Virus record (IMG/VR): IMGVR_UViG_3300032308_000833
Coordinates: 1-64,000 of that record
From: a virus
Length of the DNA: 64,000 bases
Strand: one strand, 5' to 3'
In this document: piece by piece, positions 701-7,677 of the stretch
How the letters are laid out: every line of letters begins with the position of its first letter
Position numbering within the stretch: position 1 is the first letter of the stretch
Notes under the pieces: model-generated
The model's database searches: none
What the model saw: the letters and a program-made list of their open reading frames with translations, nothing else
What the model was told of the DNA's origin: nothing
Program-made: the position numbers and the translations under genes

Positions 701-798
701 CGCTACGTAATAAATAATTAAAATGATATTTTCTAGCCGAGGGGGTTCTTTAACTGTTACGTAATGATCTTTTAAAATGATATTTTTATGCTCGGGCG
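685..798 (+). repeat. Degenerate tandem pair of the tripartite element (G-run / ACGTAA / GCYCGRGC)
   Basis: Two ~54-bp units sharing GGGG..TACGTAAT..AAAATGATATTTT; the second ends in GCTCGGGCG. Confidence 0.6.
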
Positions 799-808
799 TT
801 TTTCTTTG

Positions 809-882
809 CGATCCTGAACGGACTTGAACCGTCGACCTCTACCGTGACAGGGTAGCGTTCTAACCAACTGAACTACAGGACC
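809..882 (-). tRNA. tRNA-Asp (GTC)
   Basis: Reverse complement GGTCCTGTAGTTCAGTTGGTTAGAACGCTACCCTGTCACGGTAGAGGTCGACGGTTCAAGTCCGTTCAGGATCG folds as a cloverleaf; anticodon GTC; G73 discriminator; CCA not encoded. Confidence 0.95.
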
Positions 883-886
883 AGGT

Positions 887-914
887 GGACAGTTTCCTCA
901 GACATGTCCAGGTC
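887..914 (-). ncRNA. Small H-type pseudoknot motif, copy 1 of 3
   Basis: GAC-CU-GGAC-AU-GUC-ugagg-AAACU-GUCC; both stems covary across the three copies. Confidence 0.65.
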
Positions 915-939
915 AGTTGCCTTTTATTGGCAATTCTAA

Positions 940-1956
940 TTATGCAATCTGCATTACATCTTGCACAACTTTTAGCAAACGATTCTTTTCTGCGTTGATA
1001 GCAGGGTCAAATCCACTTGCACCAATTAGCATGTTCTCTGTGTTTTCACCACGAGCAGAACGATACCAATCTAGTCTTTCTGTCAGGGCATTGAAAGCAC
1101 CCCAAGCAGTACCAGCAATCATGTTATTGAACTCGCCAGTGTAAATGTCATTGAGTGAATCTATTTTATTAGTCCACTTAGTAACACTTGCCTTTTTATC
1201 CAATTCTGGTTTTGGATAAGCAGTTAGCAAAATATCGTTAAATTGTTTTGCTGTAACTTCTTGAGCAATCATAGCATGAGCCATTGTATCAAATGCGTCC
1301 ATGTATTTATTTGCAAGACCTAGAGTCTCTCTTGCAATTTGCACTTTACCATTAGCAGTTTGAGTGTGACGAATCTTGAATGATTGTTTGATACCATTCT
1401 TTTTACGAATACCACCTAGTGCAAGGTTTAGAGTATTAGCACACACAACACGAACAGGTGTTATGCTTGCTTGAATCGCTACTGAACCATCATGGCTTGT
1501 GTTGATTAGTAAGTAAGTCTTTACTTTATCAGCAACGCCATTAGGGTCTAAGATAGTTTCACGCTCTAATGCTAATGAGCCAAATACTACACGACCACCA
1601 CGAATTGAACCAGCAGTTTCCCAACGTCCACCACCGTCAAGAATGTTATCACCAAATGAGAATAATTCCTCATTCTGTAATGGAACATATCTTTCACCAA
1701 CTACGCCTAGCACGTCTGTCTGGGTTTGGTTAGTAGGGTTTGTTCTAACCACATAAGAATAATTCTTATCACAACTTAAGTGATTAGGGATATTCATTTC
1801 TTCTAGTCTAACATTCCAGTTATCTAGGTTTGCTGCTTGCAACATTTCTGTTGTGTTTTTTTCTTCTGTGAATACAGTGCCTAGTCCATGCCATGCTGGT
1901 TCACGGAATGAAGCGAATGACGCTGTACCATTTTGTTCTTCTAGTTCATGTGCCAT
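940..1956 (-). CDS. DUF932 / TIGR03299 phage-plasmid-like protein
   Basis: PAWHGLG, YVPLQNEELF, WETAGSIRGG, NTSHDGS, TPVRVVCANTL and IRHT motifs. Confidence 0.9.
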   Translation of the reverse strand: MAHELEEQNGTASFASFREPAWHGLGTVFTEEKNTTEMLQAANLDNWNVRLEEMNIPNHLSCDKNYSYVVRTNPTNQTQTDVLGVVGERYVPLQNEELFSFGDNILDGGGRWETAGSIRGGRVVFGSLALERETILDPNGVADKVKTYLLINTSHDGSVAIQASITPVRVVCANTLNLALGGIRKKNGIKQSFKIRHTQTANGKVQIARETLGLANKYMDAFDTMAHAMIAQEVTAKQFNDILLTAYPKPELDKKASVTKWTNKIDSLNDIYTGEFNNMIAGTAWGAFNALTERLDWYRSARGENTENMLIGASGFDPAINAEKNRLLKVVQDVMQIA

Positions 1957-1987
1957 TTATATCTCCTTATTTTGTTTGATTAACTTA

Positions 1988-2016
1988 ACTATACCATTTT
2001 GCTCTGACAATGTCAA
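1988..2016 (-). promoter_or_regulatory. Early promoter TTGACA-N17-TATAGT with TGTCAG in the spacer
   Basis: Consensus hexamers; TGTCAG-N10-TATAGT. Confidence 0.8.
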
Positions 2017-2020
2017 TTAA

Positions 2021-2075
2021 GGGGGGGTCTGGTGTTTCATCGTAACTAACAGGTTATCCACAGGCTGCTCGGGCG
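2021..2075 (+). repeat. Tripartite element containing a perfect DnaA box (TTATCCACA 2054-2062)
   Basis: G7 at 2021, CGTAA at 2041, GCTCGGGC at 2067. Confidence 0.7.
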
Positions 2076-2079
2076 TGAG

Positions 2080-2107
2080 GGCCAGTTTTAAAACGTAGCC
2101 AGGTTTT
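2080..2107 (-). ncRNA. Small pseudoknot motif, copy 2
   Basis: AAAAC-CU-GGCU-AC-GUUUU-a-AAACU-GGCC. Confidence 0.65.
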
Positions 2108-2208
2108 TTGATATCCCCTATCAAAATGATCGACGGTACCGCTGAATTCTAAGATCCACGCCATGGGCACTGGGCCACACATATACGTGCAGCCCATCCC
2201 CTTATTAA

Positions 2209-2391
2209 CTAAGCAGTAACTTTTACTGTTAGCAGTCTGTATTCGTTGAATGGTGTACGAATAGCAACACGAGTTAGGTCAGGACGAAGAGGTGTGATTT
2301 TTTCAATCTGTCCAACTACGCCTGCTTTGTTACTAGTGTACCAATCGCCTATCTTGTACATTCTTGCTTTTGGCTTTGTTGCTTTTTTCAT
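2209..2391 (-). CDS. Small basic beta-rich (SH3-like) hypothetical protein; paralog of 3547-3714
   Basis: YKIGDWYTSNKAGVVGQIEKI aligns with FKVGDKFVTQKSKAEGIITEL; start moved to ATG 2391 after AAAGGAAA. Confidence 0.65.
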   Translation of the reverse strand: MKKATKPKARMYKIGDWYTSNKAGVVGQIEKITPLRPDLTRVAIRTPFNEYRLLTVKVTA

Positions 2392-2420
2392 TCTTTTCCT
2401 TTTGTTGTAGGGGTATTGCA

Positions 2421-2861
2421 TTACCAACTAGAATGGTATCTAAGTTCCCATTCTGCTGGTACATCTTTTAGTATTGACTCAAGTTGGTCAATAGTGTCTT
2501 GAATATCGCTAAAGTAGTATTCGTTGTATTCATAGTTACCAAAGAAGAATCCCTCTTGAACAGGCAACAGGTTGGGTGCCTCTTCTTTATTCATTAAAAC
2601 TATCTTGCAATTATCTAACAATAACTGTAGTTGGTCTCGTGACACATAGTACTCTTCGCAGTCGTCTACTCCACCTTGAACATGCTTTACGAACCATGCG
2701 TGAATATGATTTGCTTTTCTCCAATAGGCTACCTGCACTTCTAGCGTTGCAAAATCTTTAACGGCAAAAGGTGCTTCTTGAATTAGTTTGTTAAATAGTT
2801 CAGGTTTGGCAAATTGTCTAGCAGTAAATTGTCTGGCATTCAGATACATATCTAAGCCCAT
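2421..2861 (-). CDS. Conserved phage hypothetical protein (MGLDMY...YWRKANHIH...YHSSW type)
   Basis: Motif set recalled from widespread phage hypothetical proteins; AAGGA SD. Confidence 0.8.
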   Translation of the reverse strand: MGLDMYLNARQFTARQFAKPELFNKLIQEAPFAVKDFATLEVQVAYWRKANHIHAWFVKHVQGGVDDCEEYYVSRDQLQLLLDNCKIVLMNKEEAPNLLPVQEGFFFGNYEYNEYYFSDIQDTIDQLESILKDVPAEWELRYHSSW

Positions 2862-2888
2862 TTATTTTCCTTAAGTAGTAGGGTGTGT

Positions 2889-2917
2889 GAGCAGTTTATA
2901 ACACATACTCAGGTGTT
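2889..2917 (-). ncRNA. Small pseudoknot motif, copy 3
   Basis: AACAC-CU-GAGU-AU-GUGUU-au-AAACU-GCUC. Confidence 0.65.
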
Positions 2918-3015
2918 GTCAAGTGTGACATGCTACTCATTTCGCAGAGGTCACACCTAACCTTTGGCTACCATGTATATGGAACTAATATCCATGTGTA
3001 TGGTTCTTGCCAAAT

Positions 3016-3474: not shown

Positions 3475-3546
3475 TTGTCTTTTCCTTTGTTTTGTAGGGG
3501 GATACTGCTAATGAAAGGGGACAGGGTTGCCCCCTCTCAATCTTAT

Positions 3547-3714
3547 TTATTTCTTTGCTGTCCAAGTAGTATATCGTGTTTGACCATTAACATCAAGTTT
3601 TACACGGATATTGCCATTTGGTTGTGGAATTAACTCTGTAATAATTCCTTCTGCTTTTGACTTTTGTGTAACGAACTTGTCGCCCACCTTAAAATCTGCA
3701 ACTGCTACTGACAT
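3547..3714 (-). CDS. 55-aa SH3-like hypothetical protein, missed by the ORF track
   Basis: MSVAVADFKVGDKFVTQKSKAEGIITELIPQPNGNIRVKLDVNGQTRYTTWTAKK; AAGGAG SD and its own promoter. Confidence 0.75.
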   Translation of the reverse strand: MSVAVADFKVGDKFVTQKSKAEGIITELIPQPNGNIRVKLDVNGQTRYTTWTAKK

Positions 3715-3742
3715 ATTTGCTCCTTAATTGTTGTTGTATCTA

Positions 3743-3771
3743 ATACTAACATTTTTATCTGACATTTGCAA
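3743..3771 (-). promoter_or_regulatory. Early promoter TTGCAA-N17-TAGTAT with TGTCAG
   Basis: TGTCAG-N10-TAGTAT, TG extended -10. Confidence 0.7.
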
Positions 3772-3792
3772 GTGATATTATGATATTTTTTT

Positions 3793-3808
3793 TGTGATAC
3801 ATCTCACA
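3793..3808. promoter_or_regulatory. CRP/GlxR-type box TGTGA-N6-TCACA
   Basis: TGTGATACATCTCACA, exact core match, upstream of an early promoter. Confidence 0.6.
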
Positions 3809-3810
3809 CA

Positions 3811-3867
3811 GGGGGGGGTTGACAAGCACCTTAATAATGTGATAGGATACGCCTTTGCTGCTCGGGC
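3811..3867 (+). repeat. Tripartite element variant carrying a promoter-like TTGACA-N18-TAGGAT
   Basis: G8 at 3811, GCTCGGGC at 3860; central motif degenerate (ACCTTAA). Confidence 0.6.
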
Positions 3868-3934
3868 AGCCCTTTAGCAGATCACTGAACCAGGAATAAA
3901 CAAAATAAACACCAAGCAACAAAATAAACTAATT

Positions 3935-4657
3935 TCATTTTTTAGTTGCACTGAACAAAATATTATTCCTTCCAACTACACATTGACTACATTTTACACA
4001 TGCAGAGCCACCTTTGTCAATAAGAGGAATTTTCTTATTATTTTCAGGACATGGAACACCCTTTGCATTAACTAAGTTAAGTAGTTGTTCCTTACCCATT
4101 GCGAATGTATCTGCAAGATATGCTAATTTAATTCCATGCTCAACGGATAATACTTTAGCATTATCTGTATTTTCACTATCTGTAGAATAATATAAACTTA
4201 GATTAGGTAAGTCTTTTAGAATTAAAGCAGCAGACTTTACTCTTGTATATACCCAAAATTTTATGTCAGGTTGTTCCTCAATAACTGAACGCCATGCGTG
4301 TGTGTATTCCTCATTAAAAAAATCGCCATCCCAGTGAATACGAAATAACATTTCAGCATTACGCTTAACACAATCTTTTTTGAAATCTGCTACCATGTCT
4401 GACAATAAATCGAACATAGTTATTCTATCAGCGTCTTTAAGTAATTCCCAATTATGCAATAGATTAGCCTTGACAGCCTTGTATAATTTTTCTAGTTTTC
4501 CTGCATAACATACTTTCTCACATATGGATGTAGCACTAGGGCATGAATAATTTTTTCCTGCAGGTAGACCAAATGTATTTTGAATTAAACTACCATTGCC
4601 TGCATTATTAACTAGGTTAGTAACTTTTCTATCGTGTGAGCGTTTTAACTTATTCAT
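3935..4657 (-). CDS. Gp88-like Cys-rich protein (possible Fe-S / radical-SAM-like fold)
   Basis: NTFGLPAG..SCPSATSICEKVCYAGK, FRIHWDGDF, FWVYTR and C-terminal CPE..CxxCxxC; start MNKLKRS after AAGGA. Confidence 0.75.
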   Translation of the reverse strand: MNKLKRSHDRKVTNLVNNAGNGSLIQNTFGLPAGKNYSCPSATSICEKVCYAGKLEKLYKAVKANLLHNWELLKDADRITMFDLLSDMVADFKKDCVKRNAEMLFRIHWDGDFFNEEYTHAWRSVIEEQPDIKFWVYTRVKSAALILKDLPNLSLYYSTDSENTDNAKVLSVEHGIKLAYLADTFAMGKEQLLNLVNAKGVPCPENNKKIPLIDKGGSACVKCSQCVVGRNNILFSATKK

Positions 4658-4793: not shown

Positions 4794-4822
4794 AATATAT
4801 CATATTAGACTGACAGGGTCAA
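4794..4822 (-). promoter_or_regulatory. Early promoter TTGACC-N17-TATATT with TGTCAG
   Basis: TGTCAG-N10-TATATT. Confidence 0.7.
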
Positions 4823-4825
4823 GCA

Positions 4826-4882
4826 GGGGGGATCCAGTGTGTCGTACGTAAACCTGTGGATAAGTTGTGGATGGCTCGGGCG
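4826..4882 (+). repeat. Tripartite element with DnaA box (TGTGGATAA 4855-4863)
   Basis: G6 at 4826, GTCGTACGTAA at 4841, GCTCGGGC at 4874. Confidence 0.7.
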
Positions 4883-4889
4883 TGGATCC

Positions 4890-5141
4890 TCAGTCGTTGC
4901 CAACAAAAACAAATAAATTAAATCTGGTTTCGTTATCTGTTTCAATAAAATCTTCTTCACCAAATTCATTTAGTGTTGTTATCTTGTAACCTGTTTCAGT
5001 ATCTTCTACTGACACAATCGTTAGCAAATCATTTTCTATTTTGATTATGTCATTAGGCATAAGTTGGTCAGGGTATAAAATATCAGCGTGTACTAGTTCC
5101 ATGCTTTTTATTTTAGCAGACATTTTACAATTCCTTATCAT
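4890..5141 (-). CDS. Hypothetical protein
   Basis: ORF track; start uncertain. Confidence 0.6.
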   Translation of the reverse strand: MIRNCKMSAKIKSMELVHADILYPDQLMPNDIIKIENDLLTIVSVEDTETGYKITTLNEFGEEDFIETDNETRFNLFVFVGND

Positions 5142-7187: not shown

Positions 7188-7209
7188 AGCCTACCACAGG
7201 GGTCTGACA
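7188..7209 (-). promoter_or_regulatory. Early promoter TGTCAG-N10-TAGGCT (leftward)
   Basis: Same geometry as the other early promoters; heads the microprotein operon. Confidence 0.65.
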
Positions 7210-7213
7210 AATT

Positions 7214-7273
7214 GGGGGAGGGGGGGTCGGCGTGTCGTACGTAAATAAACAAAATGTCCGATTTTGCCCGAGC
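7214..7273 (+). repeat. Tripartite element between the divergent promoters; terminal 8-mer inverted (GCCCGAGC)
   Basis: G-run ending 7226, GTCGTACGTAA, GCCCGAGC at 7266. Confidence 0.7.
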
Positions 7274-7289
7274 GTGTCGAGTGGCTTTT

Positions 7290-7311
7290 TGTCAGGGGTA
7301 TATGATAAGGT
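7290..7311 (+). promoter_or_regulatory. Early promoter TGTCAG-N10-TAAGGT (rightward)
   Basis: Same geometry; TG extended -10. Confidence 0.6.
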
Positions 7312-7555: not shown

Positions 7556-7612
7556 GGGGGGTACTCACTGTCGTACGTAAAGGGTAGGCTATGATCAGCG
7601 AGGGCTCGGGCG
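7556..7612 (+). repeat. Tripartite element
   Basis: G6 at 7556, GTCGTACGTAA at 7570, GCTCGGGC at 7604. Confidence 0.7.
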
Positions 7613-7677
7613 AATCCACAGGATATCCACAGGTGTGGATAACTTTATTCACATTACGGCGTGTTGCCTGTTGATAA
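7612..7677. promoter_or_regulatory. Cluster of five DnaA-box-like 9-mers
   Basis: GAATCCACA 7612, ATATCCACA 7623, TGTGGATAA 7634, TTATTCACA 7645, TGTTGATAA 7669. Confidence 0.7.

Follow-up and report, generated by a model that had tools for sequence, protein, structure and literature searches.

The DNA analysed here (the window) is the first 64,000 nt of the 80.8-kb IMG/VR virus record IMGVR_UViG_3300032308_000833, which is estimated to be 69% complete. Its minus strand carries three copies of a small RNA motif, a strand-specific, covarying H-type pseudoknot of 27–29 bases. The motif belongs to a pseudoknot family that is widespread in phages and mobile DNA of many bacterial groups and is missing from Rfam. 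Tentatively, we favour a reading in which the knot is a putative compact mechanical roadblock at gene ends, fixing or shielding the ends of messages.

Three copies in the window

The first copy occupies positions 887..914 (-) and reads GAC-CU-GGAC-AU-GUC-UGAGG-AAACU-GUCC (914->887). Its first stem (P1) pairs GAC with GUC, and its second (P2) pairs GGACA with UGUCC. Copy 2, at 2080..2107 (-), reads AAAAC-CU-GGCU-AC-GUUUU-A-AAACU-GGCC (2107->2080), with P1 AAAAC/GUUUU and P2 GGCUA/UGGCC. Copy 3, at 2889..2917 (-), reads AACAC-CU-GAGU-AU-GUGUU-AU-AAACU-GCUC (2917->2889), with P1 AACAC/GUGUU and P2 GAGUA/UGCUC. The P2 stems of copies 2 and 3 each include a U-G pair, and these wobbles (GGCU/GGCC and GAGU/GCUC) are present only on the minus strand, in agreement with the strand specificity claimed in a first-pass annotation of the window. 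That annotation had listed the same three strings, and its observation of the motif is confirmed. Copies 1 and 2 are minority P2 variants.

A scan of both strands of the window that took pairing into account (at least 3 bp in P1, CU, a 4-bp P2, a 2-nt linker and AAACU) returned exactly three matches, the three copies. The same scan of 200 dinucleotide-preserving shuffles gave a mean of 0.245 matches and a maximum of two, so that none of the 200 reached three. The scan pattern was set after the copies had been seen, and a covariance model serves as the independent check. The model was built from 86 seed rows, nearly all from other contigs, and ranks the three copies at the top of the window with no other credible match. 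Copy 1 scores 13.7 bits (E 0.02), copy 3 scores 33.0 bits (E 1e-8), and copy 2 scores 29.2 bits (E 2e-7), this last score not being independent as copy 2 is itself one seed row. No fourth copy was found in the rest of the 80.8-kb record. A loose match at 66347 of the full record was rejected; neither stem pairs and it lies antisense to coding sequence.

Fold and covariation

The refined order of elements is P1 (a 4-bp core with a closing C-G pair), CU, P2 (5 bp, GAGCA/UGCUC), a single nucleotide, the 3' strand of P1, two free bases plus AAAC, and the 3' strand of P2. The topology and the CU loop are as drawn in the first-pass annotation. Its invariant AY linker and 4-bp P2 are not retained, since the A of that linker pairs with the invariant U of AAACU, which extends P2 to 5 bp and reduces the junction to 1 nt. 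The junction base is variable (U>A>C).

The closing C-G pair of P1 is invariant, in 86 of 86 aligned and 199 of 199 unique copies. The second pair is U-A in 67% and A-U in 28%, and the following two pairs vary freely. Fifth and sixth P1 pairs occur at chance frequency, and the core is therefore taken as 4 bp. The U of the first loop (L1, CU) is invariant and often able to form a sixth P2 pair with an A (67%) just 3' of the motif. P2 begins with G in 90% of copies, paired to C, and varies by transitions only, with full double changes including AAGC/GCUU, GGCC/GGCC, GAAC/GUUC, AGGC/GCCU and UAGC/GCUA. The third loop (L3) typically consists of two free bases and AAAC, and overall of N0-6 and AAAC. 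From CU to AAACU, 341 of 457 copies measure 14 nt, 109 measure more and only seven less. AAACU belonged to the search pattern, so its invariance is not independent; the spacing is. In the 3' flank the A is followed by C or A and then by C or U, and G is nearly absent. Altogether the motif keeps about 15 bases unchanged or almost unchanged from phylum to phylum. By analogy with the knots of luteoviruses and with coremin, a motif of plant and other RNA viruses that is compared below, the invariant loop bases most likely make groove triples.

Both sides change in nine of 11 pairs in a gapless alignment of 86 sequences, as expected from the covariation claimed in the first-pass annotation. The covariation score of this alignment is 0.478, compared with 0.159 in shuffles, none of 500 being as high, and sliding the partners by one to three columns lowers pairing from 87% to 27–41%. 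The 86 sequences had been preselected for pairing, and the weight is therefore carried by counts from queries that did not ask for it. One such query (CU-N4-A-N-G ... AAACU) found 326 sense and 39 antisense sites in the related contigs described below; P2 is fully paired in 277 of the 326 sense sites, and 282 have at least three contiguous P1 pairs. A second query, which did not specify P1, recovered viral and prokaryotic matches elsewhere. At least three P1 pairs form in 134 of the 135 viral and 106 of the 127 genomic matches listed, against an expectation of ~14% given the fixed C and G. The unpaired genomic matches look like chance matches in coding sequence. A loop of 8 nt gives 232 sense and 13 antisense matches, and other loop lengths yield background or repeated coding sequence. 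Both helices contain G-U pairs, in keeping with RNA of the sense strand only.

A rarer second knot variant is seen in loci of the DUF932 family, for example AGAC-[A/C]UGUCGAAU-GUCU-uu-AAACU-AGGCA. Its loop is of 9 nt and ends in GAAU, its second stem is a different one and covaries (UGCC/GGCA, UGUC/GGUA, UAUC/GAUA), and the P1 rules and AAACU are unchanged.

Distribution

Eighty viral contigs, relatives from freshwater phages, were gathered through the DUF932 protein encoded next to copy 1 (80–100% protein identity). In these contigs (656 kb) 273 copies were counted, every one on the strand that is sense for the DUF932 gene, with no antisense copy. The first-pass annotation counted the copies in the window correctly but underestimated the scale of what is a very widespread family. 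In five near-complete relatives (111–120 kb), three to six copies are gathered in a stretch of 3–6 kb that surrounds the DUF932 gene, and one or two more lie outside it. The corresponding early region in the window contains strong sigma70-type promoters.

The pattern CCUGAGCAUG-N3-11-AAACUGCUC identified at least 120 further IMG/VR viral contigs and at least 120 contigs of species-representative prokaryotic genomes. The genomic matches listed include many from Saccharibacteria, Anaerolineae, Clostridia, Thermodesulfobacteriota, Actinobacteria and Bacteroidota, and two from Methanobrevibacter metagenome-assembled genomes (MAGs). Two conserved knot loci recur in many Saccharibacteria assemblies (L207, L234, L245, L297, L300, L309; and L206, L229, L236, L246, L254, L293). 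One knot follows a gene for a 113-aa protein, and the other overlaps the end of a small open reading frame (ORF) terminating in ...GPEHD, just before a Shine-Dalgarno sequence and start codon. One group of copies occurs in crAss-like gut phages beside genes annotated as tRNA-Val. In the crAss-like phages cr7_1 and cr124_1 (NC_055895.1, NC_055899.1) the knot precedes a tRNA beside a primase gene, and the tRNA of cr124_1 is annotated there as tRNA-Val.

A search of Rfam 15, both at gathering thresholds and at E<=10, with the window, consensus copies and 18 genomic loci gave no match to the knot, only tRNAs and one cobalamin riboswitch; this was a check proposed in the first-pass annotation, and it found no described family. 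A full-text literature search for the motif strings returned primers only, and keyword searches of the literature found no description of the motif. When the region was compared with cultured phages by blastn, only the tRNA and a short DUF932 stretch matched. The closest cultured relatives are Streptomyces phages of the BE cluster (55% identity in DUF932, 39% in the capsid protein). One of the Streptomyces phages, Jay2Jay, has no copy; the top covariance-model match in it is 9.8 bits.

Genomic context

Copies are intergenic. Only eight of 213 and 13 of 167 viral copies fall inside ORFs of at least 50 codons. The knot starts a median of 15–22 nt past the stop codon of the upstream ORF, and the next ORF begins a median of 43–123 nt later. 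By crude gene calls, 73 copies have a same-strand gene upstream only, and 21 have one downstream only. The distance from the stop codon to the C of L1 shows an abrupt floor and a mode at 9 nt (58, 35 and 15 cases at 9, 10 and 11 nt; five at 1–8 nt), and the floor is seen in each of three data sets. Subtracting the 4-nt strand of P1 leaves a spacer of 5 nt. At such a spacer, as in the geometry of frameshift sites, a ribosome on the stop codon just touches the knot without unwinding it.

A second preferred position is in front of tRNAs. Sixty-three copies end 3–13 nt (mode 4) before the 5' end of a tRNA, and one follows a tRNA. Since these tRNAs need read-through transcription, the knot is not a terminator. 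An intrinsic terminator was likewise rejected on the absence of a U-tract and the scarcity of terminator-like sites, which occur within 90 nt of ~3% of copies. One viral contig carries two pairs of knot, 4-nt gap and tRNA (L167:2513-2542 and 3565-3598), and a further knot was listed with the tRNA-linked copies (L249:2742-2765).

Clustering of the flanking proteins gives 117 unrelated groups upstream and 150 downstream, which excludes a riboswitch tied to one gene. Directly after the C of L1, 464 of 484 unique copies have the triplet UGA, UAA or UAG. The idea that this in-motif stop codon generally ends upstream ORFs was rejected for want of any frame preference.

In the window, copy 1 starts 25 nt past the stop codon of the DUF932 gene (940..1956 (-), 338 aa), which adjoins it upstream and was the anchor for gathering the 80 related loci. 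It ends 4 nt (ACCU) before the 5' end of a tRNA-Asp (GUC), as the first-pass annotation had it; the tRNA, in the same orientation, is placed at 808..882 (-) by ARAGORN and Rfam. The stop codon of a 72-aa ORF lies 101 nt upstream of copy 2; a GCCCGAGC motif follows the copy after 5 nt and a sigma70-like promoter after 64 nt. Copy 3 is 98 nt past the stop codon of a 152-aa ORF and 27 nt before an ATG at 2861. Behind a 55-aa early gene the window has a plain strong hairpin, a stem-loop without a U-tract at 3512..3539 (-) that begins 11 nt past the stop codon (-19.7 kcal/mol, z -3.3). Most relatives have a knot at this orthologous position, with 52 homologues of the gene followed by one, which suggests that the knot and the hairpin are interchangeable there.

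About 12 chromosomal loci in unrelated bacteria show another arrangement. Each has a stand-alone promoter, a Shine-Dalgarno sequence and a ~20-aa ORF of the form M-[KR]-[KR]-F-x-x-P-R-V-A-H-C-x-E-G-C-x3-S. This mini-ORF stops at the UGA inside the knot, or in the same frame two to four codons before it, and there is often a terminator downstream. The loci include L294:5301-5360, L260:1149-1208, L228:247-306(-), L213:6059-6136 and L263:3991-4044, with about eight more, and their neighbours include xanthine-dehydrogenase-type, SerRS and ArsR genes. Synonymous third-position changes indicate that the mini-ORF is coding. A search of the 20-aa product against Pfam and NCBIfam gave no match.

Early-promoter modules also recur on the minus strand of the window, at ~690-800, ~1985-2075, ~3770-3875, ~4800-4900, ~7200-7290 and ~7560-7615. 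Each opens with GCCCGAGC (inverted once), followed by a box resembling TTACGTACGACA, a run of C and then a -35/-10 pair whose spacer contains TGTCAG. Of the three window pseudoknots, two (one of them by way of the tRNA) lie 5–13 nt upstream of a GCCCGAGC box. A promoter scan calls TTGACA-18-TAAACT across copy 3 at 2893-2922 (-), with the AAACU of the knot as a possible -10. Between tRNA-Asp and the next promoter, at 715-790 (-), direct repeats of the form AAAATATCATTTTAA...ATTACGTA[AG]C occur twice, and a related sequence, AAAATATCAT, is found near 3790.

Metagenomic and metatranscriptomic evidence

DNA runs from freshwater and lake-water metagenomes contain 42–97% of the sequence words of the early region. 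Six lake metatranscriptome runs contain 11–19% of them, and their contigs cover early genes. In three of the metatranscriptome runs a contig from a sister strain spans the downstream gene, a variant of copy 3 and the upstream gene. Such a spanning contig means only that the knot can be part of a contig from an RNA library. Three stretches have no contig cover and are uninformative (535-801, 1967-2203 and 3739-4005).

Possible functions

The roadblock proposed here would be a cis-acting RNA module of early phage messages transcribed by the host, located at a gene's end, as near to the stop codon as a terminating ribosome permits. RNA polymerase passes the knot, as tRNAs and further genes follow. 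Downstream cleavage, through RNase P in front of a tRNA and through another endonuclease elsewhere, would make the knot the 3' terminus of the upstream message except for a tail of a few bases, and there it might shield that message from 3'-to-5' exonucleases. RNase P matures the 5' ends of tRNAs, and the tRNA-linked knots must therefore end up at a 3' terminus. Equally, the knot could block 5'-to-3' decay, scanning, or the entry of ribosomes into the next unit. Of the three functions offered in the first-pass annotation, a nuclease-blocking or processing signal fits the placement best, as the knot hugs stop codons, abuts the 5' ends of tRNAs and in one half resembles coremin. The earlier interpretation is thus partly supported.

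Several observations weigh against a roadblock. The stems are individually weak, nested folds reaching -6 to -9 kcal/mol and being no better than shuffles, so that any nuclease resistance would depend wholly on the putative tertiary contacts. The window copies, at 25, 101 and 98 nt past their stop codons, are placed more loosely than the family norm and the minimum spacing. A second hairpin, obligatory in coremin, is not enriched: folding of the 3' flank does not exceed that of controls, and 19–34% of copies have a hairpin within 4 nt. Placement favours protection of a 3' end, whereas the analogy with coremin would favour a 5'-to-3' block, and known frameshifting knots do not stall the exoribonuclease Xrn1 (PMC10321173). 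The metatranscriptomes consist of assembled contigs, which cannot show RNA ends. A pure end-cap model leaves the arrangement of the chromosomal mini-genes unexplained, and the conservation of loop bases across phyla could instead reflect a universal binding partner.

The spacing behind stop codons also raises an unlikely alternative linked to translation. The knot would stand where the mRNA enters a ribosome that has reached the stop codon, and would steer the ribosome's next step, by preventing sliding or re-initiation, by slowing termination, or by keeping ribosomes off the downstream tRNA and structures. The 5-nt minimum spacer equals the spacing of frameshift and readthrough knots, coremin both holds up scanning ribosomes and promotes -1 frameshifting, the ~12 mini-ORFs have an in-frame stop codon within the knot, and the U-R-R after the C of L1 is nearly universal (464 of 484). 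However, the spacing is a floor rather than a fixed distance, with only about one third of copies within 5–9 nt; the internal U-R-R has no frame preference relative to upstream ORFs; and slippery sites and extended frames are not seen. More improbable still is a processing signal for a universal enzyme, most plausibly RNase P, in which P2 and P1 would mimic the acceptor and T-arm of a tRNA and be cut at CU|G. The invariant U, the G-C pair starting P2 and the 3' A, C/A, C/U do resemble U(-1), G1-C72 and A73-C-C, the motif spans bacterial phyla and Methanobrevibacter MAG contigs, and the pseudoknotted tRNA-like ends of plant viruses are RNase P substrates. Yet the ACC is a tendency, nothing corresponds to a T-loop, tRNA-linked copies would oddly have two sites ~30 nt apart, and, as weak evidence, the sister-strain RNA contigs cross copy 3 uncut.

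We consider a binding site for a conserved protein or small molecule, such as an early decoy or sponge, about as improbable as the RNase P signal. It would account for the ~15 nearly invariant bases and for the clustering of several copies in the earliest-expressed region, but there is no common neighbouring gene, copies also occupy ordinary chromosomal contexts, and the conserved bases are those expected for groove triples. The junction base is variable, there is no obvious pocket, and this single base, the 117 upstream and 150 downstream unrelated clusters and the absence of any match to a riboswitch model speak against the small ligand-binding RNA put forward in the first-pass annotation. 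An element acting in DNA, either a -10-type promoter or a hairpin site in single-stranded DNA, seems very improbable. The promoter call over copy 3 would fit, and a T precedes AAACT in 38% of copies, so that nAAACT conforms to TANNNT. A promoter does not explain compensatory changes and G-U pairs in two crossing helices, though; the 5' flank has no -35 consensus, the 7 nt from CUGAGC to AAACU is the wrong spacing, and tRNAs 4 nt downstream require read-through transcription. Least credible is the suggestion, also from the first-pass annotation, of a mimic of the antitoxin RNAs of type III toxin-antitoxin systems (ToxI/CptI). These are similar to the knot in size and pseudoknot topology and likewise have an A-rich single strand. 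The copies are single and dispersed, however (0.8–1.2 kb apart in the window, and without tandem arrays in the relatives), P1 varies freely, no ToxI-type or other antitoxin family matches in Rfam, and the motif spreads over many phyla, with copies before tRNAs and in chromosomal mini-genes. A self-cleaving ribozyme was considered unlikely as well: only CUGA/AAAC is shared with the cores of hammerhead, twister, pistol, hatchet and HDV, and RNA contigs span a copy.

Should the roadblock reading hold, the knot would be a portable punctuation mark of 27 bases that defines RNA ends with neither terminators nor phage proteins, and a part for synthetic biology as an insulator or stabiliser between cistrons. 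It would also explain many of the 50–80 nt 'empty' intergenic gaps in the genomes of uncultured phages and the fixed 4-nt leader before many phage tRNAs. Whatever its function, a motif this small, conserved and widespread merits a family entry in Rfam.

Comparison with known RNA folds

The knot resembles the preQ1-I riboswitch in being a very small H-type pseudoknot with an A-rich 3' tail containing AAACU. That assignment was rejected: RF00522 gave no match at E<=10, the junction is one variable base in place of a C-containing loop, P2 differs, and queuosine genes are not associated with the copies.

The -1 frameshifting pseudoknots of luteoviruses (BWYV, PLRV) are ~28 nt long. Their first stem has 4–5 bp, L1 consists of 2 nt of which the first is C, the junction is a single nucleotide, and the A-rich L3 occupies the minor groove of stem 1. 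The overall geometry of the phage knot agrees with this general picture. It differs in having a longer P2, in lying outside ORFs and in lacking preceding slippery sites. A role in -1 programmed ribosomal frameshifting, for which a slippery heptamer 5–9 nt upstream and overlapping ORFs are required, was rejected; neither accompanies the copies, which are intergenic and bear no frame relation.

Other RNA elements stabilise 3' ends without terminating transcription. They include REP elements, the early RNase III sites of T7, and the MALAT1 triple helix, which is followed by the RNase P-cut mascRNA. Like these, the knot is intercistronic, is read through by the polymerase and would end up at a processed 3' end, and the order of knot and tRNA parallels that of triple helix and tRNA-like structure. 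The fold is another one, and the phage motif is conserved in sequence across phyla.

The closest parallel is with coremin (xrRNA-C, an exoribonuclease-resistant RNA) of beny-, cucumo- and other RNA viruses and with its Watson-Crick variant xrRNA-WCC (PMC6546385, PMC10520033, PMC10321173). Coremin consists of a 3–5 bp hairpin with a closing C-G (Y-R) pair, a U-A second pair and a loop of YGAD or YGNNAD (PMC6546385). In the spacer that follows (U13 U14 A15 A16 A17 C18 U19 A20 C21), U13 and U14 are replaceable and A15-A17, C18 and U19 are required; bases may be inserted after the stem, a deletion is not accepted, and a second hairpin must follow. Coremin halts Xrn1 one base ahead of the hairpin, is a barrier to scanning ribosomes and promotes -1 frameshifting, and in xrRNA-WCC the loop pairs with the spacer's 3' end (PMC6546385, PMC10520033, PMC10321173).

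The 5' hairpin of the phage knot has the same C-G closing pair, a U-A second pair and a 4-bp core, and thus conforms to the Y-R hairpin of coremin. Its loop begins with C and ends in A-D, and the stem is followed, position for position, by two free bases and then AAAC-U. The rule on insertions and deletions matches the 14-nt minimum of the phage knot, and some copies are likewise intergenic and multicopy. As in xrRNA-WCC, P2 is a 5-bp Watson-Crick stem, here with double changes, and L1 is very short. The differences are also clear. The phage loop has 8 nt, CUGAGCAU, in place of YGAD or YGNNAD, and shares with these just the first Y and the terminal A-D. P2 forms a regular Watson-Crick helix of 5 bp, a G follows the U where coremin has A20, and the obligatory second hairpin is not enriched. 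The phage hosts, moreover, are prokaryotes without Xrn1. The phage knot is not a member of the coremin class; judged by analogy, it plausibly has a like working mode.

A broader and more doubtful proposition is that the phage knot and plant-virus coremin embody a single structural solution: a minimal RNA fold that needs no partner to stop processive enzymes moving on RNA. This solution would then be in use from bacterial phages and viruses of methanogens to eukaryotic RNA viruses. In prokaryotic viruses the knot would be the first described class of RNA that resists exoribonucleases and ribosomes, and through it phages would control what becomes of each cistron independently of the host. A roadblock function would join prokaryotic viruses to the xrRNA field, in which the structure of coremin remains unsolved. 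With its regular Watson-Crick second stem and hundreds of natural variants, the phage version is an easier target for structure determination than coremin.

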